Assembly (NCBI GenBank): GCA_028717245.1
Contig: JAQUOD010000001.1
Location: 85,514 to 149,513, forward strand
Length of the DNA: 64,000 nucleotides
Direction of reading: 5' to 3'
Origin: Candidatus Omnitrophota bacterium
GTDB taxonomy: Bacteria; Omnitrophota; Gorgyraeia; Gygaellales; Profunditerraquicolaceae
In this document: piece after piece, positions 2,394-60,652 of the stretch
Numbering within the stretch: position 1 is the first letter of the stretch
Layout: the number at the start of each line of letters is the position of its first letter
Position numbers and translations under genes: made by a program
Notes under the pieces: model-generated
The model's database searches: none
What the model was told of the DNA's origin: nothing
The model's input: only the letters and a program-made list of their open reading frames with translations

Positions 2394-3383
2394 TTATGTT
2401 TTCTTTAATTTCTTAGAATCAACCTGCATGCCTAGGTTCACACCCATGCCCGCGAGCAATTCCTTTATTTCGGTCAGGGATTTCTTGCCGAAATTTTTAA
2501 AACTCAACATTTCCTCTTCCGTCTTCTTTACTAAATCAGCTATGGTCTTGATATTAGCTTCCCTCAGGCAATTTGAGCTCCTTACCGATAATTCCAGCTC
2601 CGATATGGGCAGCTTTAATTTTTCATATAGCATCATTTCTTCCCGGCTCATCTGCGGCTCTTCTTCTATTTCCTCGGGTAGCTGGCCGAAACTGACAAAG
2701 ATATCCAGGTGCCTCTGCAGGATATTGGAGGCATAAAGAAGGGCGTCCTTTGGGGTTATGGCGCCGTTGGTTAATATTTCTAATATCAGTTTATCGTAGT
2801 CTGTCCTTTGCCCTACGCGCGTATTCTCTACGTAAAAATTCACCTTTTTAACCGGGCTGAATATGGAGTCTATGGGGATTACGTTTATACTGGCGCCGTC
2901 TTTTTTATTTGCTTCCTGAGGCACATAACCCCGGCCCCTGGCTACCTCAAGTTCCGCCTGGAACTTTATATCTTTAGTAAGGGTGGCGATATGCAGGTCA
3001 GGGTTAATTATTTCTATAGTTTCATCGACCTCAATATCTTTTCCCTTGACCTCGCCTTTGGTATTTTTTTTCACGTAGATAGTCTTGGGTATCTTTGAGT
3101 GGGAATTCAAGACCAGGCTCTTTATGTTTAAAATTATCTCCGGGATATCTTCCAGTACCCCGGGGATAGTAGAGAATTCATGCTCTACCCCCAAAAATTT
3201 AACCGAGGTAACCGCGCTGCCTTCTATAGAAGAAAGCAAAACCCTTCTTAAGGAACTGCCTAAGGTTACGCCGTAGCCTCTCTCGAAAGGGGCAGCAGAA
3301 AATTTACCATAGGTATTAGTGTAGCTAGCTTCATCGCACTCCAGCTTCTTCGGTAATTGAAAATCCCTCCATTTTGTGCCCAT
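2394..3383 (-). CDS. rpoA: DNA-directed RNA polymerase subunit alpha
   Basis: 329 aa, follows rpsD/rpsK/rpsM as in alpha operon. Confidence 0.9.
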   Translation of the reverse strand: MGTKWRDFQLPKKLECDEASYTNTYGKFSAAPFERGYGVTLGSSLRRVLLSSIEGSAVTSVKFLGVEHEFSTIPGVLEDIPEIILNIKSLVLNSHSKIPKTIYVKKNTKGEVKGKDIEVDETIEIINPDLHIATLTKDIKFQAELEVARGRGYVPQEANKKDGASINVIPIDSIFSPVKKVNFYVENTRVGQRTDYDKLILEILTNGAITPKDALLYASNILQRHLDIFVSFGQLPEEIEEEPQMSREEMMLYEKLKLPISELELSVRSSNCLREANIKTIADLVKKTEEEMLSFKNFGKKSLTEIKELLAGMGVNLGMQVDSKKLKKT

Positions 3384-5084: not shown

Positions 5085-5312
5085 TTATTTTGATCTAAAA
5101 GTAATCCTGCCTCTGGTTAAGTCATAAGGAGAAAGCTCCAGCTTTACTTTATCTCCCGGCAGTATCCTGATAAAATTCATGCGCATTTTACCCGAAACGT
5201 GGGCGAGCACGCGGTGCCCGTTTTCTAATTCTACCCGAAACATAGCATTAGGCAAAGCTTCAATTACCGTACCCTCGGTTTCAATCAGCTCTTCTTTTGC
5301 CATATTTGTCAA
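5085..5312 (-). CDS. infA: translation initiation factor IF-1
   Basis: 75 aa S1-like fold, ...[18 protein letters not shown]... Confidence 0.9.
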
Positions 5313-6052: not shown

Positions 6053-6692
6053 TAGGTTCTTTTGTTAACTCAATAATTTTATTCAGCACCATTTCCGCAT
6101 CCCCGTCTGCCGAAAGGCGGTAAAGGCTGCCTTTTTGATTGTAGTATTGAACTACAGGAGAAGATTCCTTTAGATAGACCTCAAGACGTTTTTTAATCGT
6201 CTGGGGATTGTCATCGTTTCTTTGATAAAGTTTACCGCCGCATTTATCACAGGCCATATCTACTTTCGGCGGCATGTTCTTAATATGAAAATTCTCCGAA
6301 CAAACGCTGCAGACTAAGCGCCCAGAGAGCCGTTGTATGATTACCGGTTCGCTGGTATCAAGATAAATTACTAAATCCGGACCGGATTTTTTTAACATGT
6401 TATCCAGCGCTTCCGCTTGGCTGATATTACGGGGGTAACCGTCTAAAATAAATCCTCTTTGGGTATCCGATTGGTTAATACGCTCACTTAACATCTGCGT
6501 AACCAATTCATCGGGTACTAAAGCGCCCCTGTTCATAAAATCCTGGGCCTGTTTACCTAACGGGGTATTGCCTGAGACATTTTGCCTGAGTATATCTCCG
6601 GTAGAGATGTGCGGCAGGCCTAACTTCTCTGCCAATACCTTTGCCTGCGTGCCTTTTCCCGCACCCGGCGGGCCCAATAATATTATTTTCAT
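6033..6692 (-). CDS. adk: adenylate kinase (Zn-lid type CxxC..CxxC)
   Basis: ORF track start 6737 is an upstream extension; MKIILLGPPGAGKGTQA start at 6692, 1 nt after secY stop. Confidence 0.9.
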   Translation of the reverse strand: MKIILLGPPGAGKGTQAKVLAEKLGLPHISTGDILRQNVSGNTPLGKQAQDFMNRGALVPDELVTQMLSERINQSDTQRGFILDGYPRNISQAEALDNMLKKSGPDLVIYLDTSEPVIIQRLSGRLVCSVCSENFHIKNMPPKVDMACDKCGGKLYQRNDDNPQTIKKRLEVYLKESSPVVQYYNQKGSLYRLSADGDAEMVLNKIIELTKEPNDSHKV

Positions 6693-18209: not shown

Positions 18210-20306
18210 TTAAAGAGTTTTCCTTGTCCCCGTAGTTGTAAAACCTGACTTTATCTTTTCTGCTATATGTGAAGGCACCTCAGCGTAAAACGAGGGCTCC
18301 ATTGTATAGGACGCCCGGCCTTGCGTTAAAGAACGCGATACGGTTGCGTAATTAAATACTTCTGCCAAGGGCACATAATTTCTGATTGTACGCACATTCC
18401 CGCGCACGGCAAGCGAGGTTATCTTTGCCCTCCGGGAATTTAAGTCGCCGATTATCTGCCCCATATATTCCTCCGGCACGACAATCTCCATGTCCATAAT
18501 CGGCTCTAATAAAATAGAATTTGCTTTCTTGAGGCCTTCATTAAAAGCGATTGCCCCGGCCATTTTAAAGGCCATCTCCGAAGAATCTACTTCATGGAAC
18601 GAACCGTCTATTAATTCCACTTTTACATCCGTAACCGGATAGCCCGCTAATACGCCGCTTTTAGCCGCGCCTAACACACCGTCTTCGACCGACGGGATAA
18701 ATTCTCTAGGGATAGCGCCGCTCCTTATTTTATTCTCAAAGGTTATCCCGGCACCGGGCATCTCCTGGGGCGACATCTCCAAGACCGCATGTCCGTATTG
18801 TCCGTGGCCACCGCTTTGTTGGATAAATTTTCCCGTTGAGATTACCTTTTTAGTAATAGTTTCGCGATAGGCAACCTGGGGTAAACCTACCTGTGCCTCC
18901 ACACTAAATTCGCGTAATATTCGGTCGATAACTATCTCTAAATGTAACTGGCCCATTCCTGAAATAATGGTCTGCCCTGTTTCGTGATTATAGGTTACGC
19001 GAAAAGAAGGGTCCTCTTCCGCTAATTTATGTAAAGCCATGCCCATTTTTTCCTGGTCTTGTTTAGTTTTGGGTTCTACTGCCTGCTGGATTACCGGTTC
19101 GGGAAAACGCATTGCTTCAATAAGTATGGGGTTAGCCTCCTCGCAAAGCGTGTCCCCTGTTTTAGTCTCTTTTAATCCCGCAACCGCAGCAATATCGCCG
19201 GTAGAAATGTTGTCTACGACCTCTTGGCGGTTAGCATGCATAAACATTAATTTTGTAATGCGTTCCCTGGTCCTGCGCGAGGCATTATAAATATAAGACC
19301 CGGAATTCAGGACTCCGGAGTATACCCGCAGGTAATTAATCCTCCCTACATAAGGATCCACCATTACCTTAAAGCATAAAGCGCAGAAGGGCGCTTCGTC
19401 TGAGGCAGCTATCTCCTCGTGCTCCCGCGTTTCCGGCTCCATACCCTTTATCGGCGGTAAATCCAGAGGCGAAGGCAGATAATCGCAGATGGCATCCAAA
19501 AGCATCTGCATGCCTTTGTTCCTTAAAGAGGAGCCGCACAAAACCGGGATAAACTTATCCTCAATAACCTTTCTCCTTATCGTTTCTTTTATCAAGGCCG
19601 CAGTTATTTCTTTATTCTGTACGTAATAACTCATTATCGTATCGTCTACCTCTGCCAATTTTTCCAGCAGTATGTGGTGGTATTTATCTAATTCAGCCAA
19701 TTTGTCAGCGGGCACATCCATAATATCGAACTCTCTGCCTGCGTCGTCTTTATATACGATTAGTTTTTTTTCTATGATATCAATAATACCTTTAAAATTT
19801 TCTTCCTGGCCAAAAGGCAGCTGTATCGCGGCAGCGTTTGCCCCTAATTTTTTATGTATTTCTTCAATAGTGCCGAAAAAGTTGCTTCCGATACGGTCCA
19901 TTTTATTTACGAAGGCGATCTTGGGCACGCCGTAACGCTCAGCCTGGCGCCAGACTGTCTCTGACTGCGGCTCAACCCCGCCCACTCCGCAGAAAACAAT
20001 TACTGCCCCATCCAGCACCTTCAGGGACCTTTCGACCTCTACGGTAAAATCAACATGCCCGGGGGTATCAATGATATTGATGCGAAAGTCATTCCAGTTA
20101 CAGGTAGTACAGGCAGCAGTAATAGTAATGCCCCTTTCCTGTTCCTGGACCATCCAGTCCATAGTAGCAGTGCCTTCGTCTACCTCTCCGATTTTATAGG
20201 TCTTGCCCGTAAAATAAAGTATGCGTTCGGTAGTGGTAGTCTTACCCGCATCAATATGGGCGATAATACCGATATTTCTAAGTTTAGTTAAAGATTTTTC
20301 TTTCAT
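18210..20306 (-). CDS. fusA: elongation factor G
   Basis: ORF-track N-terminus is an extension; [24 protein letters not shown] start at 20306, 13 nt after rpsG stop. Confidence 0.9.
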
Positions 20307-52173: not shown

Positions 52174-52401
52174 CCATACTTAACATTTAACGGGTGGCTT
52201 GGTTTGGTTTCGCACAGCAGTTTTAAAGGGGACCCCGCGAGTGGGTGTGGGCGAGGAAAATTTGACGAGTACACACCCTAAAAGCAGGGGATATTTTTAA
52301 TCCCTGTGGGAAGCAAAACAAGACAGCCGCAATAAAAATCCCTCCTTTCTACTCCTAATAGACGCAGGAGTAAGAAAAATCTAACAGTCAGTCCTCCTGG
52401 C

Positions 52402-52439: not shown

Positions 52440-53606
52440 ATGGAAGAGATAAATAAAATCAAACAAGAAATCGAGCGCACCAAAACCGAACTGGCTATCC
52501 TTTATGAAATATCCAATGCCATGCGTACCACTCTTAAGCTGGATGAAATACTCTACATTATCCTGACCGGGGTCACCGCGCATATAGGATTGGGGTTTAA
52601 CCGCGCCATCCTCTTTTTAGTCAACGAAAAAAATAGTGTTATCGAAGGTAAAATGGGTATTGGCCCGGGAGACGGCGAAGAAGCTAATCAAATCTGGACC
52701 AGGGTAGAACGCGAGCAGATGGATTTAGACGACCTGATTAATGCTTATAAGGTTTCTAAGGATATCCTGGAATCCAGCTTCAACCAGCAGATACGCGCCC
52801 TGAAGATGCCCTTAAAAGAACAAAATGGCGGATTACTGGCTTTGGGGGTACTGGAGGGCATGCCTTTGCATCTAACCGCTGAAACCATACAAAACTATAG
52901 TAAGGATCCTATTATACGGATATTAAAGGCTGATGAGTTGGTAGTAATCCCCCTGAAAGCAAAGGATAAAGTAAACGGAATAATTTTAGCAGATAATTTT
53001 ATTACTAAAAAGCCTATTACCAAAGATGATATACGCATGCTGATTATGCTGGCTAACCAGGCGGGTCTAGCCGTTGAGAATTCACAACTTTACGAAAAAG
53101 CCGTTATCCGCGCCCATACTGACTTGCTTACCGAACTTTATAATCATGGGCATTTCCAGTACCTTTTATCTACAGAGATAGAGAAGGCAAAGGCGAGTTC
53201 CCTTCCTTTAAGCCTGATTATGCTGGATATCGATAATTTTAAGGTCTATAACGATGCGCTCGGGCATCAGGCCGGGGATAAAATCTTAAAGGCGCTGGCG
53301 TTGCTGCTAAAGAACCAATCCCGCAAAATGGATTATGTCTGCCGTTACGGCGGGGAGGAATTTACCATTATCCTGCCGCAGACGGAAAAAAAAGAGGCGT
53401 TCTTAATCGCTGAACGCCTGAGGATGGATATTGAAAAATACACCTTTATCAATGAAGAAATCCTGCCTAATAAAAAATTAACCGTGAGTATGGGTTTGGG
53501 TTCTTACCCGGAAAACGGGGCTACTGCCTCTGATTTAATCACCAGTTCTGACCAAGCCCTCTATCAGGCCAAGCATAAAGGAAAAAATAATACCTGCTGT
53601 TGTTAA
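52440..53606 (+). CDS. diguanylate cyclase with N-terminal GAF-like sensor domain
   Basis: RYGGEEF motif, LIMLDIDNFKVYND. Confidence 0.85.
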   Translation: MEEINKIKQEIERTKTELAILYEISNAMRTTLKLDEILYIILTGVTAHIGLGFNRAILFLVNEKNSVIEGKMGIGPGDGEEANQIWTRVEREQMDLDDLINAYKVSKDILESSFNQQIRALKMPLKEQNGGLLALGVLEGMPLHLTAETIQNYSKDPIIRILKADELVVIPLKAKDKVNGIILADNFITKKPITKDDIRMLIMLANQAGLAVENSQLYEKAVIRAHTDLLTELYNHGHFQYLLSTEIEKAKASSLPLSLIMLDIDNFKVYNDALGHQAGDKILKALALLLKNQSRKMDYVCRYGGEEFTIILPQTEKKEAFLIAERLRMDIEKYTFINEEILPNKKLTVSMGLGSYPENGATASDLITSSDQALYQAKHKGKNNTCCC

Positions 53607-56600
53607 GCCCCGGCAGGTTCAACTACGGCTACATCCGCCTCTTTATCTTTTACGGCTTTACTCCCCCCGAACTTCACGGAAACAATCTTAGAAACCCCGG
53701 ATTCCTCCATAGTGATCCCGTACATCACGTCCGCGTTGGCAATGGTTTTCTTGTTGTGGGTAATCACGATAAACTGGGAGGTCCTAATAAACTCCTGCAG
53801 CATGCGGCCGAACCTGTCCACATTGGCTTCATCCAAGGCAGCGTCTATCTCATCCAATACGCAGAAAGGCGAAGGCTTAACTTTAAATATGGCAAAAATA
53901 AGCGCTATCGCAGACATGGATTTTTCTCCGCCGGAGAGTAAAAGCACATTCTGTAATTTTTTGCCCGGAGGCCGGCAGATAATTTCAATCCCCGATTCCA
54001 GCGGGTCCTGTTCATCAACTAAAAAAACCTGGGCATCGCCGCCGTTAAAGAGCAGCCGGAAATAATTCTTAAACTCCAGGCGCACCTTTTCAAAGGTCTC
54101 TAAAAACATTTTTTTAGTGGTGCGGTTAATCTTTAAGATCGCCTCATGCACTGATTCGCGCGCCGTTACCAGATCATTCTGCTGCTGGGTCAGGAAATCA
54201 TAGCGTTTCTTTAATTCGTCATATTCTTCTATGGCTACCAGGTTAACCGTGCCATAGGAATCTAACCTGTCTTTTAATTTTTCTATTTCCTGGGAAAGCG
54301 TATCCTTATCTATTGCCTCCTGGAGGCTATTACAGGGCATATCCAAATCCGCCTTATAGGACTGCAGGATCCTCTCTTTAAGGCTAGTGATTTTAAAATC
54401 TACGTCTTTATTTTGCATCTGTAGCTCGTATAATTTATTTTTTATGTTGTCCAATTCTTTCCTGTCTGCCTCTACCTTGCCTACGGCATCGCTTACACCT
54501 TCATTAATCCCGCGGTATTTATCTTCTGTTTCTTTGAGGAGATTATTTTGCTCCTGAATATCCAACTGCGCCTGCTCAATCCTGCCCTCTGAATTTTTAA
54601 TCTCCAAGGCCAGTTGTTGTTGTTTATCCGCATTTTCTTTGACTTGCTCCTCAAAATTCAGGAGGCTCTCCTTATCCTGTTGACAGGTATCTTCCAAAAT
54701 TTTAAGCGTAGCTCCTTCAGAATCTATGCGCTTACTTAAACCCTCCAGCTCTGTTTTAGCCTGGGTAATCGCCACTAACGTCTGCTCTTTAAGGCTATGA
54801 TTTGCATTAATGTTATTCTGTTCTTTAAGGATCAGCTCTTCATGTCCCTTTTGCTCTTTATCCAGCTCTGCTGCCTGGGTTTGTAGGCCCACTAGCGTAT
54901 TCTCAAGACTGGATAAATCCTGCCCCACTTCAGATAATTCTAAAACTATTACCTCCTCTTCATCCCTTATTTTATTAAACTGCTCCAGGACTGCCTGATG
55001 AGATGCTTTTTTATTGGCTAAGGTTATTTCCTGGTTACGTAAGGCCTCCTGAAGATGAAAGATAGCCTGATTTAATTCTGCGATACGCGCCTGGCTTGCT
55101 GTCTTAGCGCCCTCCATGGCCCTTAGGCTGTCTTCAAGTATAGATAATTTCTGGTTAATTTTCTGCGCATCCAAATCAATGGGTTTAGCTTCTCCGTATA
55201 ATTTAAATTTTGCGCCTTCGATAAGTCGGCCATCCAACGTCGAGCCGGATGGATCTTTTATTTTTATTACTAAAGCGGTTATTTTATCCGATGGCTGCCT
55301 GTCTAAATAAATCTGCGCATTCATGGATTCACTGATATCTTCGTATTTTGTCTTTAGCTTATCCAGGAATTCTTTGTGGGACAACAAACCCGACTTTTCT
55401 CTTTCTAAATTAGAGATGTCTGTATTTAAGTTATTCAGGCCCTGGGTTTCCCGCTGTAATTTATCCTTAGCATCGGATATCTTCGAACTTAAATCCTGGA
55501 AGTCTTTTTCCAGCTCTTTTAGTTCTTGGTTGAGATTATCCAGATTATCCTGAATCTTCGCCTTTTCTTCATTGACCTTTATCTTTTCGATTTCCAGCCT
55601 CTTTTTACGCGCTGAATAAATGTGCTGCTTGCCGGTTAAATCAGCAATCTCATTTTTAACCTGCGTAAATTTAGTAACCAGCCCAAGAATGCTTCTATTG
55701 GTTTTAGCAATAGCCTCCAGGGAATTTTTAGTGGATAAGGTTATATTGCTCAGCCGCCCTTCTTTATCCTGCAGGAAGAGCCTTTTTTCTTCAATGGTTT
55801 GGTTTATCGCATTGCGTTCGTTCTTTAAATTATTTAATTTTTCTTCATCCAGCGAGAGCCTCTTCTTGGTCTGCTCAATCTGCCCCTCTAGGTGCTTCTG
55901 GCTTACGTCTAATTCCTTTATCTTTTCTTGGTTAAAATTGACGCGCTCTTTATTGGCTAAAATAGAGTTCTCCAGGGTCATGATTTGATTTTTTATGGCC
56001 ATGATCGCCTCTTCCATGGCTTTTAGTTCACCGCGTTGGTCGCTATTCTTTGATTCATGCCCCTGGATGATGCTTAAAAGCCGGTCTTCTGCTACCTGCA
56101 ATTCCTTCAGCTGGTTTATGATATTATCTTTTTCTAAGGCCAATTGGTTCTTATCCCATAGGGCCAGGCTGATTTCTTTTTGTTTTAATTCCTCAAAGGC
56201 TTCTTTATACCGGCGCGCCTTATTGGCCTGGCGCTCTAAAGAGCCGATCTGGCGTTTTACTTCCGTAATGATATCATTGACCCTTAAAAGGTTCTGTTGG
56301 GTTTCTTCTAATTTCCTCATTGCCTCTCTTTTTTGAACCTTATATTTAGTAATCCCTGCGGCCTCATCAAAAACCAGGCGCCTGTCTTCCGGCCGGGAAC
56401 TTAAGACTAAATCTATCTTTCCCTGCTCTACCAGAGAATAACTTTCAGCCCCAATGCCGGTACCCATCAGCAAATCCAGGATATCCTTAAGCCGCACCTG
56501 GGTTTTATTTAACAGGTATTCGCTCTCGCCTGACCTGAAGATCCTTCTAGTAATGGTCACCTCATCATGATCAATACTGAAATATTTCTGGTCATTATCA

Positions 56601-56851
56601 AAGGTGAGGCTGACTTCTGCCATGCTTAAGGGCTCTTTAATATCCGTGCCGTTAAAAATCACATCCTGCATATCCGAGCCGCGTAGCGACTTTACTGACT
56701 GCTCGCCCAGAACCCAGCGTATAGAATCAAAGATATTGGATTTCCCGCAGCCGTTTGGGCCGACTACCGCAGTAACCCCGGGTTCAAAATGTAAAACGGT
56801 TTTATTCAAAAATGACTTGAAACCCACTATCTCCAGTTTTTTGAAATACAT
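53603..56851 (-). CDS. smc: chromosome segregation protein SMC
   Basis: MYFKKLEIVGFKSF...GPNGCGKSN, long coiled coils, 1082 aa. Confidence 0.9.
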   Translation of the reverse strand: MYFKKLEIVGFKSFLNKTVLHFEPGVTAVVGPNGCGKSNIFDSIRWVLGEQSVKSLRGSDMQDVIFNGTDIKEPLSMAEVSLTFDNDQKYFSIDHDEVTITRRIFRSGESEYLLNKTQVRLKDILDLLMGTGIGAESYSLVEQGKIDLVLSSRPEDRRLVFDEAAGITKYKVQKREAMRKLEETQQNLLRVNDIITEVKRQIGSLERQANKARRYKEAFEELKQKEISLALWDKNQLALEKDNIINQLKELQVAEDRLLSIIQGHESKNSDQRGELKAMEEAIMAIKNQIMTLENSILANKERVNFNQEKIKELDVSQKHLEGQIEQTKKRLSLDEEKLNNLKNERNAINQTIEEKRLFLQDKEGRLSNITLSTKNSLEAIAKTNRSILGLVTKFTQVKNEIADLTGKQHIYSARKKRLEIEKIKVNEEKAKIQDNLDNLNQELKELEKDFQDLSSKISDAKDKLQRETQGLNNLNTDISNLEREKSGLLSHKEFLDKLKTKYEDISESMNAQIYLDRQPSDKITALVIKIKDPSGSTLDGRLIEGAKFKLYGEAKPIDLDAQKINQKLSILEDSLRAMEGAKTASQARIAELNQAIFHLQEALRNQEITLANKKASHQAVLEQFNKIRDEEEVIVLELSEVGQDLSSLENTLVGLQTQAAELDKEQKGHEELILKEQNNINANHSLKEQTLVAITQAKTELEGLSKRIDSEGATLKILEDTCQQDKESLLNFEEQVKENADKQQQLALEIKNSEGRIEQAQLDIQEQNNLLKETEDKYRGINEGVSDAVGKVEADRKELDNIKNKLYELQMQNKDVDFKITSLKERILQSYKADLDMPCNSLQEAIDKDTLSQEIEKLKDRLDSYGTVNLVAIEEYDELKKRYDFLTQQQNDLVTARESVHEAILKINRTTKKMFLETFEKVRLEFKNYFRLLFNGGDAQVFLVDEQDPLESGIEIICRPPGKKLQNVLLLSGGEKSMSAIALIFAIFKVKPSPFCVLDEIDAALDEANVDRFGRMLQEFIRTSQFIVITHNKKTIANADVMYGITMEESGVSKIVSVKFGGSKAVKDKEADVAVVEPAGA

Positions 56852-56863
56852 CGCCTCTCCTTG

Positions 56864-57055
56864 TTATGAATGTACTTTGGTTTCTAACCAGGCATCAATT
56901 TTATCTTTTTTAAAACGCCACTGGCCGACAAGCTTTACTGCCGGGATCTTATTATTTTTGAGCCAGTCATAAATGGTCCTGCGGGTTACTTTTAAGTAAC
57001 CGGCTAAATCTTCAATAGTCATTAATGCACTGTTATTCATCATAACTTGCCTCAT
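56864..57055 (-). CDS. small helix-turn-helix (excisionase/MerR-like HTH_17) DNA-binding protein
   Basis: MTIEDLAGYLKVTRRTIYDWLKNNKIPAVKLVGQWRF. Confidence 0.65.
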   Translation of the reverse strand: MRQVMMNNSALMTIEDLAGYLKVTRRTIYDWLKNNKIPAVKLVGQWRFKKDKIDAWLETKVHS

Positions 57056-57067
57056 AGTATTGTTTTA

Positions 57068-57096
57068 ATTATAAAGAAAAAAACAAAATTTGTCAA
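57068..57096 (-). promoter_or_regulatory. perfect-consensus sigma70 promoter TTGACA-17-TATAAT for the HTH-smc pair; predicted transcript is leaderless or near-leaderless
   Basis: rc reads TTGACAaattttgtttttttcttTATAATtaaaacaataATG. Confidence 0.5.
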
Positions 57097-57431
57097 GGAA
57101 AATCTTTACATTCTTTTACATATATATCCAAAAGGGATAGTTTTAGTGCTAAAAGGTATGAAAATAGGAAGAATTTCTAAAATAACGGTTTAGCGGGTGA
57201 CGAGGCATGTTTTAAGCAGCATCTTGAAGATGCGAGCGGGCAGGGTTCACCTGCTCTTAGAAACCAGTGAGAGCGAGCAGCTTCACCGAAGCGAGAAAAT
57301 TCCACGCTGGGGAATTTCGAGCGGTGCTGCGAAAACATGACTCGGCAGGACCCGCTACCTCGTAAGAGAAAAGATCGATAGCGCTATAAAAAAATATGCA
57401 AGGCAGGACCCGCTCTAAATGGATGGGAAAA

Positions 57432-58634
57432 TTATTTCCTGAGGGTTTGTTGGAATTGTTTGGTTAAGACAGGAACTATTTGGAAGAGGTCACCGACAAT
57501 ACCATAGGTCGCTACTTTAAAGATAGGCGCATCGGGATCTTTATTGATGGCGATGATGATTTTTGAGGACTGCATGCCTACGAGATGCTGGATCTGGCCG
57601 GAGATGCCGCAGGCAATATAAATTTTAGGCGATACTGTTCTTCCGGTCTGGCCTACCTGATGCGAATAAGGCATCCACCCGGAATCTACTGCTGCGCGCG
57701 AAGCACCCACTGCGGCACCTAAAACATGTGCGAGCTCTTCTAAAATTTTAAAGTTCTCCGGTCCTCCCATCCCCCGGCCGCCTGAAACAATAATATCCGC
57801 CTCTGATAAATTTATCAGGGCCTCTACTTCTTCTACTATATCCAGGAGTTTTGCGCGCGAAGCGTAGAGAGAATTATCAAAAGTTTCCCGGATAATTTTA
57901 CCCTTTCTCTTTTTATCCGGCTCCATCGGTTGCATTACCTTATGCCGGACAGTGGCCATCTGCGGCCGGTAGTTTGGGCTGATGATAGTAGCCATGATGT
58001 TTCCGCCGAATGCCGGCCGGGTCTGCAGGAGTATTTTCTTTTCCTGGTCAATATCCAGGCCCGTGCAATCCGCAGTCAGGCCTGTTTTTATTTTAACGGC
58101 CACGCGCGAGATTAAAGAACGGCCGATAGCCGTTGCCCCGCAGAGCACGATCTCGGGCTTATGTTTCTTGACTAACTCAACTAAGATATTAGTGTAAGGT
58201 TCATCCTGAAAATTAGCTAATTCCGGGGCCTCTATTAGATAAATATTATCCGCCCCGCGCCAAGCCAACTCATCCAATTGGTCATCTAGATTGTGGCCGA
58301 TTAAAATACCGCTTACCTGACAATTAAGTTTTTGGGATAATTCCCGGGCCTTGCCTAAGAGTTCATAGGAGACAGACTGGACTTTACCTTTCTTCTGTTC
58401 GATGAATACCCAGATCCCTTTATAATCTTTTATATCCGGTAAAACGCAGGCAGTAACCTCTTTTTCTAAAAACACTGCCTTAAATTTACAGGCAGGAACG
58501 CAAGCGCCGCAGAGATTACATTTATGTAAGTCAATCACTGCCTTCTTGTCCATTATGCGGATTGCGTCAAAAGGGCAAGCCTTAACGCAAAGCGTGCATC
58601 CCGTGCATTTTTCTATAATTATTTGTATACCCAT
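57432..58634 (-). CDS. etfA: electron transfer flavoprotein alpha subunit with N-terminal 2x[4Fe-4S] ferredoxin domain
   Basis: [12 protein letters not shown]...[11 protein letters not shown]; Etf alpha FAD-binding C-terminus. Confidence 0.85.
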
Positions 58635-58706: not shown

Positions 58707-59486
58707 CTATACCTGGACCTGCAATAGCTCTACTAATTGCGCGGCAATCTCAGGAATCTCACCCTTAAGTATCTGGCCACCGGTTCTCTGAGGAGGAGTA
58801 AAAATCTTCACTACTTGCGTAGGAGAACCGCATAATCCGATCTGTTGGGGATCTAAATTTAGTTCTTTCTGCGTCCAGAGGGTAATTTTAGCCTGCTTAG
58901 CGCGCATCATCCCTTTTAAAGAGGGCAGCCGCGGTTCATTTATCTCTTTGACCACAGTTAAAAGCGCCGGCAGGGGTACTTCAATTATCTCAAAACCCTC
59001 TTCCATTAATCTCTCTACGCGCAGAGTTTTTTCTTTTATCTCTTCTATCTTTTTGACATAAGTAACCTGGGGTATGTCTAAATGCGTGGATATCCCCGGC
59101 CCAACCTGGGCAGTGTCGCCGTCAGAGGCCTGCTTACCGCAGATAATTAAATCAAACCCCCCTATTTTTTTGATGGCAGCGGATAAGGTATAACTGGTGG
59201 CCCAGGTATCGCTTCCGGCAAAGGCGCGGTCGCAAACCAGGATACCTTCATCTATGCCCATGGAAATCGCTTCTCTTAAGGCCGCTTCTGCCTGCGGAGG
59301 ACCCATAGTAATCACCGTGACCTTGCCGCCGGTTTTTTCTTTCAGCCGCACTGCCTCTTCAATAGCATACATGTCAAAGGGATTAATAATGGACTTTACC
59401 CCTTCGCGGATTAAGGTATTCGTTTCCGGGTTAATTTTTACTTCGGTGGTTTCCGGGACCTGTTTGATGCAGACGATGATATTCAT
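58707..59486 (-). CDS. etfB: electron transfer flavoprotein beta subunit
   Basis: MNIIVCIKQVPE... Confidence 0.9.
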   Translation of the reverse strand: MNIIVCIKQVPETTEVKINPETNTLIREGVKSIINPFDMYAIEEAVRLKEKTGGKVTVITMGPPQAEAALREAISMGIDEGILVCDRAFAGSDTWATSYTLSAAIKKIGGFDLIICGKQASDGDTAQVGPGISTHLDIPQVTYVKKIEEIKEKTLRVERLMEEGFEIIEVPLPALLTVVKEINEPRLPSLKGMMRAKQAKITLWTQKELNLDPQQIGLCGSPTQVVKIFTPPQRTGGQILKGEIPEIAAQLVELLQVQV

Positions 59487-59500
59487 TTTCAGCCTTAAGC

Positions 59501-60652
59501 TTATTTAGCCATTTCTTTGATTAACTGCAATGCGATAATGTTACGCTGAATCTGGTTTGTACCTTCGTAAATTTGGGTAATCTTGGCATCGCGCATATAT
59601 TTTTCCGCGGGATAATCCCTCATATAACCGTAACCGCCGAGTATCTGTACGGCATCAGTAGTAACTTTCATGGCTACGTCTGAGGCATACATCTTGGCCA
59701 TGGCCGAATCCTTGCCTACGTCTTTACACCCGCCATCTATTTCCCTGGCGCAGGAATAAACTAAGGCCCGGGCAGCTTCAATTTCCGTAGCCATATCTGC
59801 CAACATCCATTGTATACCCTGAAAGCTAGCTATGGTTTTACCAAACTGCTGCCTCTCTTTAGCATATTTTACCGCCACATCCAGCGCCCCCTGGGCAATA
59901 CCTAAGGCTTGAGCAGCTACTCCCGGCCGCGACATATCAAAGGTCTTCATAGTCACGATAAAACCCATGCCTTCTCTGGATAAAAGATTTTCTTTGGGGA
60001 TTTTGCAATCAGTGAAAATAAGTTCACGCGTTGAAGAAGCGCGGATGCCTAATTTTTCTTCTTTTTTACCAAAGGTAAAACCAGGCGTGCCCTTTTCTAC
60101 TATAAATGCCGAAGCACCCCGAGCCCCCTTAGTCTTATCCGTCATGGCAATAACCGTATAGACATCGGCATCCCCGCCGTTAGTAATAAAGTGTTTAAGG
60201 CCATTTAAGATATAATGGTCCCCGTCTTTACGCGCAGTAGTCTTAATGCCGGAGGCATCAGAACCTGCTTCCGGTTCAGTAATGCCGAAGGCAGCGATTT
60301 TTTTGCCTTTTGCCAGCTCCGGCAGGTATTTTTTCTTCTGCTCGTCATTGCCGAATAAGACAATCGGAAATGTCCCTAAGGCCGAGGCAGCATAGCATAC
60401 CGCGATACCTCCGCAGGCACGCGATAATTCTTCGGTAGCAATACACAAGTTTAATACGCTGTTAGCCATACCGCCATACTCAGCAGGAATAAATAAACCG
60501 AATAAATCCGCATCCGCAATGATCTTGATAATTTCCCAAGGGAATTCTTCGGTTTGATCGTGTTTGGCCGCTACCGGGCGGATCTTCTCGTCGGCGATTT
60601 TACGCGCCAGTTCCTGAATCATCTTTTGTTCGTCACTTAGCAGGTAATCCAT
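59501..60652 (-). CDS. acyl-CoA dehydrogenase (butyryl-CoA dehydrogenase-like)
   Basis: 383 aa ACAD fold; adjacent to etfBA. Confidence 0.85.

Follow-up and report, generated by a model that had tools for sequence, protein, structure and literature searches.

Introduction

The bcr1 elements of the Bacillus cereus group are interspersed repeats of about 155 bp that reside in intergenic regions and are not conserved between related strains; they encode no protein, and compensatory changes keep their branched, cruciform-like fold (PMC3184786). The element reported here, identified in a 64,000-nt stretch of a Candidatus Omnitrophota genome (contig JAQUOD010000001.1; the whole stretch is referred to as the window), resembles bcr1 in size, in its patchy intergenic distribution, in its compensated branched fold and in that no protein is encoded. 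In contrast, bcr1 copies are flanked by 5-bp direct repeats, are restricted to a single species group and resemble one another, whereas our element shows no target-site duplication, its copies within one genome are 55-73% identical, its hosts range in GC content from 0.31 to 0.67, and its core, a three-way junction, contains about 35 conserved nucleotides.

REP/REPIN sequences are described (PMC3116915, PMC8049555) as dispersed intergenic hairpins without target-site duplication that form long-lived populations within genomes and whose folded single strands are recognised by a RAYT (HUH) transposase encoded elsewhere. REPs are simple palindromes of 20-40 nt with a GTAG or CGTC tag (PMC3733652). 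Our element is likewise dispersed, intergenic and free of target-site duplications, but it spans 150-190 nt, has a branched conserved core and carries no GTAG/CGTC tag, i.e., it is not a REP by this description, nor was a RAYT gene seen.

Among Correia elements, internally deleted shorter variants exist. Correia/ERIC-type MITEs in general are 100-170 bp long, have inverted-repeat ends that fold as a long hairpin and show variable intergenic occupancy (PMC3184786). The size, the inverted-repeat ends, the shorter variants and the variable occupancy are all shared with our element, which differs from these MITEs with regard to their TA duplications, their narrow host range and their lack of covarying internal hairpins. 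For the attC sites of integrons, structure is conserved while sequence varies; they fold as single strands, often abut a stop codon and are exchanged between close relatives. Our element is similar in that structure prevails over sequence, in the single-strand fold, in the location near a stop codon and in the exchange among relatives. However, the R''/R' boxes of attC (RYYYAAC...GTTRRRY) are absent or wrongly ordered, the termini being TTTAGCGGG...CCCGCTAAA or unrelated sequences, such that an assignment to attC fails. Furthermore, in contrast to attC, the neighbours are syntenic housekeeping genes, the orientation is random, and neither cassettes nor arrays are present.

Finally, orphan non-coding RNA classes (raiA, OLE and the motifs of PMC11109978 and PMC8632094) are, like our element, defined by covariation, combine conserved junctions and loops with variable stems, and have no assigned function. 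They are usually single-copy with a characteristic neighbourhood or with a promoter and a terminator, whereas our element is multi-copy, indifferent to its context and subject to turnover at the DNA level, and none of the 4227 models of Rfam 15 matches it. A description of the family was found neither in Rfam 15 nor in the literature that can be searched, where absence does not imply that it is unpublished. The family and its combination of properties appear new, while the kind of object is known, be it structured repeats dispersed between genes or non-coding RNA classes of the orphan type.

Results

Gene Setting and Fold of the Domain

An earlier note on the window, made from its letters, had reported a non-coding region at 57100-57431 with a direct repeat and a long-range closing helix, located between the end of the etf operon and a strong HTH-smc promoter. 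The placement is correct, and the promoter turned out to be a perfect consensus on the minus strand. The genes of the locus are as follows.

59501-60652, - strand: acyl-CoA dehydrogenase
58707-59486, - strand: EtfB
57432-58634, - strand: EtfA, ferredoxin-fused
57096-57068, - strand: HTH-smc promoter, perfect TTGACA-17-TATAAT
56864-57055, - strand: HTH_17 protein, 63 aa
53603-56851, - strand: SMC

Every gene flanking 57189-57359 is encoded on the minus strand, while the element is found on the plus strand, i.e., antisense to etfA and HTH-smc. With regard to the interval, the structured domain is restricted to 57189-57359. Positions 57100-57175 lie outside of it. They form part of the block upstream of the HTH-smc promoter, and within the gap this block alone is conserved by BLAST (about 60 relatives). 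The 80 closest EtfA loci from species-representative genomes, with 74-88% identity, stem mostly from Candidatus Omnitrophota, and some from Planctomycetales or from genomes named plainly 'bacterium'.

The 13-mer GGCAGGACCCGCT occurs exactly twice in the window, namely at 57344-57356 and 57402-57414. That is, the direct repeat is real, and the coordinates given for it before (57343-57355 and 57398-57410) needed a correction by a few positions. Allowing for up to 2 mismatches, 4 matches are observed in the window compared to 1.07 expected. The arms 57198-57213 and 57332-57347 are inverted repeats with 88% complementarity, and an outer helix pairs 57191-57198 with 57350-57357. This confirms the proposed helix that closes a domain of about 170 nt (57189-57359), the arms of which had been placed 1-4 nt off.

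The minimum free energy (MFE) of the plus strand of 57189-57359 is -73.5 kcal/mol (z = -5.5), and none of 200 shuffled sequences was equally stable. The minus strand shows an MFE of -63.1 kcal/mol (z = -4.0), i.e., the plus strand folds better by 10 kcal/mol. Given this fold and the family consensus discussed below, we dissected the domain into the following parts.

57178-57183, + strand: TAAAAT, a hexamer resembling a -10 box, located 5 nt before the start of win-1 and without a usable -35 (weak and uncertain as evidence of a promoter)
57189-57359, + strand: win-1, a complete family member with closing helix and three-way-junction core (from covariance-model matches, MFE and nhmmer/cmsearch homologues)
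57191-57213, + strand: 5' arm of P1 (outer part 57191-57198 / 57350-57357, inner part 57201-57213 / 57332-57344)
57332-57357, + strand: 3' arm of P1, including the first 13-mer (57344-57356)
57345-57349, + strand: unpaired bulge GCAGG on the 3' arm of P1, kept as (A/G)CAGGA in Omnitrophota-type copies
57216-57221 / 57325-57330, + strand: P2, GCAGCA/UGCUGC
57229-57281, + strand: arm P3-P4, one arm of the three-way junction
57229-57233 / 57277-57281, + strand: P3
57234-57235 with 57275-57276, + strand: tandem G.A pairs
57236-57237 / 57273-57274, + strand: 2-bp GC clamp
57238-57246, + strand: conserved loop GGGCAGGGU
57247-57250 / 57267-57270, + strand: P4, with variable loop 57251-57266
57233-57242, + strand: conserved block CGAGCGGGCA
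57270-57277, + strand: conserved block AGAGCGAG
57291-57322, + strand: arm P5, with clamp 57291-57292 / 57321-57322
57296-57303 / 57311-57318, + strand: P5 stem
57303-57311, + strand: conserved P5 cap CACGCUGGG

The local hairpin gcatc-ttgaa-gatgc that had been pointed out within the domain is present at 57219-57233. The family consensus, on the other hand, pairs 57229-57233 with 57277-57281 (P3).

The Second 13-mer and a Second Family Member

Beside the complete element, the window holds two more sequences related to the family.

57388-57419, + strand: solo 3' arm AAAAAATATGCAAGGCAGGACCCGCTCTAAA, containing the second 13-mer (57402-57414), without matching 5' arm or core
52186-52337, + strand: win-2, a second family member, in the recA/GGDEF intergenic region

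The solo arm resembles the 3'-arm consensus of the family, AAGACAGGACCCGCTAA, including the terminal CTAAA, and agrees with the corresponding arm of win-1 in 14 of 16 positions. It is most simply explained as the relic of another family member. Its minus-strand reading together with the T-run that follows constitutes the only terminator-like site after etfA, which is weak and comprises 5 bp (57413-57398).

It had been proposed that one strand has two alternative partners here, as is typical for riboswitch or attenuator switching. When the first 13-mer is blocked, the second copy (57408-57414) can indeed serve as the partner of 57192-57198, at the expense of 7.6 kcal/mol. The outermost 7 bp alone are altered, while the remainder of the fold is unchanged. 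A duplicated 3' arm further downstream is seen in the window and in no other family member examined. Thus, the alternative pairing is possible but the choice between two partners is not conserved, which removes the attenuator idea.

In win-2, the P1/P2 arms are those of the family (TTTAACGGGTGGCTTGGTTTGG...CAAGACAGCCGC) and enclose an unrelated core, for which no homologue was found among the loci compared. It scores 29.2 bits with covariance model R1 (E = 6.9e-5 over all loci, 5e-8 locally), and its fold is rod-like (z = -4.8).

Family Discovery and Covariation

An nhmmer search with the domain found homologues in three EtfA loci. They share the blocks CGAGCGGGCA, AGAGCGAG and CGCUGGG, while the stems in between differ by compensating changes; for the four sequences, RNAalifold reports 45 base pairs, 25 of which are compensated. 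From these four sequences we built the covariance model R1, with which win-1 scores 167.4 bits (129.1 bits with model R2). Searching with R1 revealed further copies in two loci (L059, L029), core-less minis in L025 and L013, as well as win-2. In addition, metagenome contigs were scanned with a pattern composed of the three core blocks. This resulted in at least 120 stretches with the core pattern, and all 120 that were listed match the covariance model, mostly with 40-163 bits, and 4 truncated copies with 27-39 bits. Overall, more than 130 copies were found.

We assessed the consensus structure on an alignment of 87 sequences. Here, 94% of the cells in paired columns are indeed paired, compared to 59% after shuffling and 35-49% for slid partners; since the alignment was fitted to the model, the observed fraction is somewhat inflated, with a margin over the controls that is very large. 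The covariation score is 0.672 (shuffled 0.153, slid partners 0.06-0.11), and 42 of the 45 pairs show double-sided changes. Among them are pairs of P1, which covary across the family. The P5 stem is fully compensated among homologues (GUUUUGCC/GGCAAAAC, GUUGCGAC/GUCGCAAC and GGUGCGGC/GCCGCACC), and P2 reads GCAGGG/CCCUGC or GCGGGG/CCCCGC where win-1 has GCAGCA/UGCUGC. We are thus dealing with a family of homologues in many genomes that share a structure whose helices are supported by compensatory changes.

In contrast to the stems, which are free to vary, about 35 unpaired or junction nucleotides are conserved. The consensus shows an asymmetric loop GGGCAnGGuU opposite RAGA in P3-P4 and a P5 cap CnCGCUGGG; furthermore, Omnitrophota-type copies have in common an asymmetric loop in P1 with UGG opposite (A/G)CAGGA. 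The blocks are not an artefact of the search pattern: the 6 full copies found without it keep them with 0-3 changes each, usually 0-2. Elements are about 150-190 nt long within the family, and in many members the pairing of the flanks extends for a further 10-25 bp, which results in units of 140-227 nt.

The helix pairs of the family comprise 89 G.U/U.G but only 43 A.C/C.A combinations. Together with the conserved loops and the better folding of the plus strand, this excess would fit a function of the single-stranded plus strand, either as RNA or as single-stranded DNA.

As had been suggested, we ran cmscan against Rfam 15. Apart from tRNAs and chance matches, scans of the window and of 36 homologous loci with the 4227 models returned nothing, be it at the gathering threshold or at E <= 10. 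Neither an aptamer nor a 6S RNA was matched by the element at E <= 10.

Turnover and Copy Number

The order etfA to HTH-smc is kept in about 60 Omnitrophota relatives, but only 5 full copies of the element are found in that gap, namely in the window, L025, L027, L029 and L059, the last in opposite orientation. A further relative (L034) has its copy between acd and etfB instead. In the relatives, the distance from the etfA stop codon to the conserved promoter block is only about 25-120 nt, compared to which the window has about 260 nt extra.

The etfA genes of L025 and L027 are 93.7% identical at the nucleotide level (82.7% at four-fold sites, 96.7% over the last 150 nt). Both relatives have an element at this site, with identical orientation, but the two elements show only 63% identity, near the median of 58% for the family as a whole. 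The sequences diverge from about 8 nt past the stop codon onwards. Judged from these sequences, the difference looks like a replacement rather than a divergence in place. Flipped copies are also observed at orthologous sites, e.g., L128 vs. L146 and L108 vs. L137.

Among the matches listed, 9 contigs carry two copies, mostly with 55-73% identity and with one pair at 93%; no near-identical burst within a genome was seen among the contigs examined, L161 excepted. Core-less mini hairpins are found in L025, L013 and L206, and solo arms in the window, L136, L175 and L150, scattered beside full copies or at gene ends. The P1 arms, which are imperfect inverted repeats of 25-50 bp and thus qualify as terminal inverted repeats, are kept in the minis. 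With regard to target-site duplications, the lengths of flanking direct repeats equal those of the shuffled-partner control. The lack of such duplications together with the lack of near-identical bursts (L161 excepted) renders a classical cut-and-paste transposition unlikely. What is shown by these comparisons is a dispersed, multi-copy placement that ignores the neighbours, with gain, loss, flipping and replacement among relatives.

Genomic Context of the Copies

Considering the copies with defined orientation and both neighbours among the matches listed, co-directional genes enclose 36 antisense and 26 sense copies, while 16 and 12 copies are located between divergent and convergent genes, respectively. 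The gene downstream of a copy shares its strand in 49 cases and is encoded opposite to it in 58 (among the matches listed). That is, the orientation relative to the neighbours looks random.

The 370 neighbouring proteins of the listed matches fall into 313 clusters of ordinary housekeeping genes. Counting all 755 ORFs, no protein family recurs in more than 5 of the 120 listed loci, and no recurrent transposase-like neighbour is among them. This also bears on retrons, for which a reverse transcriptase would be expected directly downstream: the neighbours in the 120 listed loci are diverse housekeeping genes without a recurrent family. No reading frame is preferentially open across the family, i.e., there is no sign of a conserved small ORF or type I toxin.

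Signals of an own transcription unit are scarce. Sigma-70 promoters are not enriched on either side of the element compared to shuffled sequences or the opposite strand, an A at -11 is weakly enriched in the Omnitrophota subfamily, the TAAAAT hexamer of the window is also found upstream of the element in L034, and a terminator-like T-run follows in only 2 of 80 copies. The room to the nearest stop codon has a median of 98 nt on the 5' side vs. 32 nt on the 3' side, i.e., about 65 nt more. The GC content of the host loci ranges from 0.31 to 0.67 among the matches listed, and the element is usually GC-richer than its surroundings.

Discussion

Our preferred explanation, to which we give an even chance, is that of a non-autonomous dispersed repeat whose selected unit would be the fold itself, with the single-stranded form being recognised by a factor encoded elsewhere. 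A single strand of the element, in the form of a transcript or of single-stranded DNA, would fold into the long imperfect closing helix P1/P2, which opens into the three-way junction. There, the P5 cap and the P3 loop face each other across the junction and may dock, forming a compact recognition or active site. Similar to REP/REPIN or bcr1-type elements, we suppose that a trans-acting factor encoded elsewhere binds this fold; among the ORFs of the loci examined, no such enzyme was identified. Since the element is dispersed, occurs in either orientation, is subject to turnover and leaves minis and solo arms, it is not a cis-regulator of etf or smc. Locally, the etf mRNA would carry the complementary sequences of element and solo arm and thus end in a hairpin-rich 3' region, which may affect this mRNA. 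What speaks against our preferred explanation is that pairing is kept in each of the old, divergent copies, which fits better with an RNA useful to the host than with a decaying selfish repeat.

The main rival explanation, which we regard as possible and rather unlikely, is a family of independent genes for a trans-acting small RNA (an RNP RNA or a protein-sequestering RNA), where each copy has its own promoter. For win-1, this would place the start site near 57190, with transcription converging on that of etfA. Such genes would account for the fold and the conserved loops being retained by all divergent paralogues of one genome as well as for the random orientation, which is expected of independent genes, and the extra 65 nt or so on the 5' side, the TAAAAT hexamers of the window and L034, the A at -11 in the Omnitrophota subfamily and the higher GC content of the element point in the same direction. 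However, promoters are not enriched over shuffled sequences or the opposite strand and T-runs after the 3' end are confined to 2 of 80 copies. It also speaks against this rival that near-identical relatives hold non-orthologous copies at one site, that minis without a core and solo arms occur, and that pairing extends into the flanks by 10-25 bp in many copies. The turnover at the DNA level is hard to square with stable genes. The 'other sRNA' that the earlier note had kept as a fallback is directionally right, because the region does hold a real non-coding domain with a strong structure and a long helix at its base. When the structure is placed within longer transcripts instead, it could be a self-processing, ribozyme-like or RNase-targeted module in which the P5 cap docks into the P3 loop. 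The three-way junction, its roughly 35 conserved unpaired or junction nucleotides and its variable stems are indeed reminiscent of small ribozymes and aptamers, and several divergent copies per genome without partner gene, promoter or terminator would be no surprise. On the other hand, about half of the copies are antisense to the flanking transcription, no Rfam ribozyme matches at E <= 10, and no cleavage-site feature was identified, which makes this reading improbable.

Very improbable is a classical MITE, i.e., that the P1 arms serve as terminal inverted repeats for the transposase of a related IS that moves the element by cut-and-paste. It would explain the long imperfect inverted repeats at the ends, their retention in the minis and around the different core of win-2, and the presence/absence variation at orthologous sites, but not the covarying internal hairpins, for which recognition of inverted repeats alone is insufficient. 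Moreover, target-site duplications do not exceed the control, the terminal bases show the covariation of a helix (TTTAGCGGG/CCCGCTAAA vs. TTTTGCGGG/CCCGCAAAA) and do not form direct repeats, copies within a genome are old and divergent, and the 755 ORFs contain no recurrent transposase-like neighbour. The two regulatory ideas of the earlier note fare worse. A riboswitch or attenuator, in which the 5' arm switches between the 13-mer copies and thereby controls etf or HTH-smc, can draw on the existence of both 13-mers and on an alternative 7-bp pairing that is only 7.6 kcal/mol above the MFE. It is hardly tenable given that the element is encoded opposite to both operons, lies upstream of the HTH-smc promoter and thus outside its leader, and has homologues with unrelated neighbours, i.e., without a fixed downstream gene, that lack the second arm; furthermore, no terminator (T-run in 2 of 80 copies) and no Rfam aptamer match at E <= 10 is available. 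Sequestration of RNA polymerase by a 6S-like mimic of an open promoter has practically no chance either. In its length (about 170 nt) and its long closing helix the element is reminiscent of 6S RNA, but no 6S model matches, the family is multi-copy with mini derivatives and rapid turnover, and the consensus, a three-way junction, leaves essentially no single-stranded 5' strand for a bubble. It is this junction without an open central bubble that removes the 6S idea.

Coming back to the dispersed repeat with a selected fold, a further-reaching interpretation is tentative and in our opinion more likely to fail than to hold. According to it, the family could represent a new functional class of structured RNA or a mobile element folded as single-stranded DNA, with the three-way-junction core acting as ribozyme or as recognition module of a trans-acting enzyme, widespread in Omnitrophota and other uncultivated anaerobes, and spread or exchanged without target-site duplication. 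If the family is real and functional, it would add a widespread, strongly covarying element of about 170 nt to the few bacterial non-coding classes without a known function, in a host phylum known only from metagenomes. An RNA-like core combined with DNA-level turnover, core-less derivatives and no target-site duplication is an unusual mix among bacterial repeats. Such a mix could indicate that structured elements are mobilised or exchanged in a novel manner, or that a new type of RNP or ribozyme is involved. For practical purposes, models R1 and R2 allow for annotation of the element, such that it is not misread as a riboswitch, an attenuator or an sRNA of the adjacent genes. This would also mark sites that are prone to breaks in metagenome assemblies: among the matches listed, the distance to a contig end is at most 150 nt for 11 elements, compared to 6 expected.

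Additional Observations

A candidate third copy in the window (19899-19994) is a false positive located inside the coding sequence of EF-G. When viral contigs were scanned with the core pattern and a 17-mer arm, the hits were chance matches that the covariance model rejects; a phage-borne element is thus dismissed for the collection of viral contigs scanned. Close to the copies, 6 tRNAs are encoded within 160 kb, which is no clear enrichment. Finally, two upstream modules, M1 and M2, which we do not count as parts of the element due to their variable distance and either orientation, recur 5' of some copies.

Second family member in the window

Besides win-1, the structured intergenic repeat copy at 57189-57359 (+), the window holds a second member of the same element family.

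Window 52186-52337, + strand: second element copy (win-2), between recA and a GGDEF gene

The arms of its closing helix are almost identical to those of win-1, its core is unrelated, and its predicted fold is a rod (z = -4.8). When a homologue of the win-2 core was sought among the compared loci, none was found.

Association with etfA and flanking genes

The gap downstream of etfA is a hot spot for hairpin elements in general. Among the matches listed, the element lies 28-33 nt past an etfA homologue in 2 of the 120 metagenome loci, which were not selected via etfA; both homologues lack the ferredoxin domain.

L092 7412-7572: element after etfA homologue
L131 41-195: element after etfA homologue

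Taken together with the Omnitrophota cases, these two loci hint at a recurrent association of the element with the etfA 3' end. Family-wide, and again among the matches listed, the element's flanks are asymmetric: the stop codon of a convergent gene is found at a median of 32 nt from the element 3' end (10 nt or less in about a quarter of the cases), and that of a co-directional upstream gene at a median of 98 nt from the 5' end.

In other genomes, this gap contains a different hairpin family, whose arms are GGGACGGTTCT.../...AGAACCGTCCC; a T-run comes after the hairpin.

L004 about 2940-3050: GGGACGGTTCT/AGAACCGTCCC hairpin
L058 about 5215-5265: GGGACGGTTCT/AGAACCGTCCC hairpin

Accompanying repeats and variant loci

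Two more short recurrent modules, ATTCGCTCGAAAAnCGCCAGATTCAT and GCCAAAAAATTTCTAATGTGCCTCCAGC, are found directly 5' of elements, with variable spacing to the element and in both orientations.

Short modules ATTCGCTCGAAAAnCGCCAGATTCAT / GCCAAAAAATTTCTAATGTGCCTCCAGC:
L025 5474-5499
L136 4726-4751
L152 3424-3449
L034 2901-2928
L150 1001-1028
L151 2748-2775

Their recurrence suggests that the element-bearing intergenic regions are a BIME-like repeat mosaic. In L034, the acd-etfB spacer (2737-3215) spans 480 nt compared to 14 nt in the window; it contains a long inverted repeat (about 2800-2925) and then a sense-oriented element, which ends 27 nt upstream of the etfB start codon. Within L029 (about 6076-6115), an insertion of about 35 nt, bordered by the 7-nt direct repeat TGGACTG, splits the true 5' arm (GAACGGGTGGCTTGGACTG) from the remaining element.

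HTH_17-smc promoter block

Window 57068-57125, - strand: HTH_17-smc promoter block, perfect TTGACA-17-TATAAT

The direct repeat ATGTAAAAGA/ATGTAAAGA stands ahead of this promoter. Across about 60 Omnitrophota genomes the whole block shows 75-97% identity, far above the remainder of the etfA-HTH_17 gap, and because of this conservation it may be an operator or UP-like element. For the SMC protein (window 53603-56851, - strand), no Pfam hinge domain was reported at E <= 1e-3; the protein has 1082 aa and an SMC_N match.
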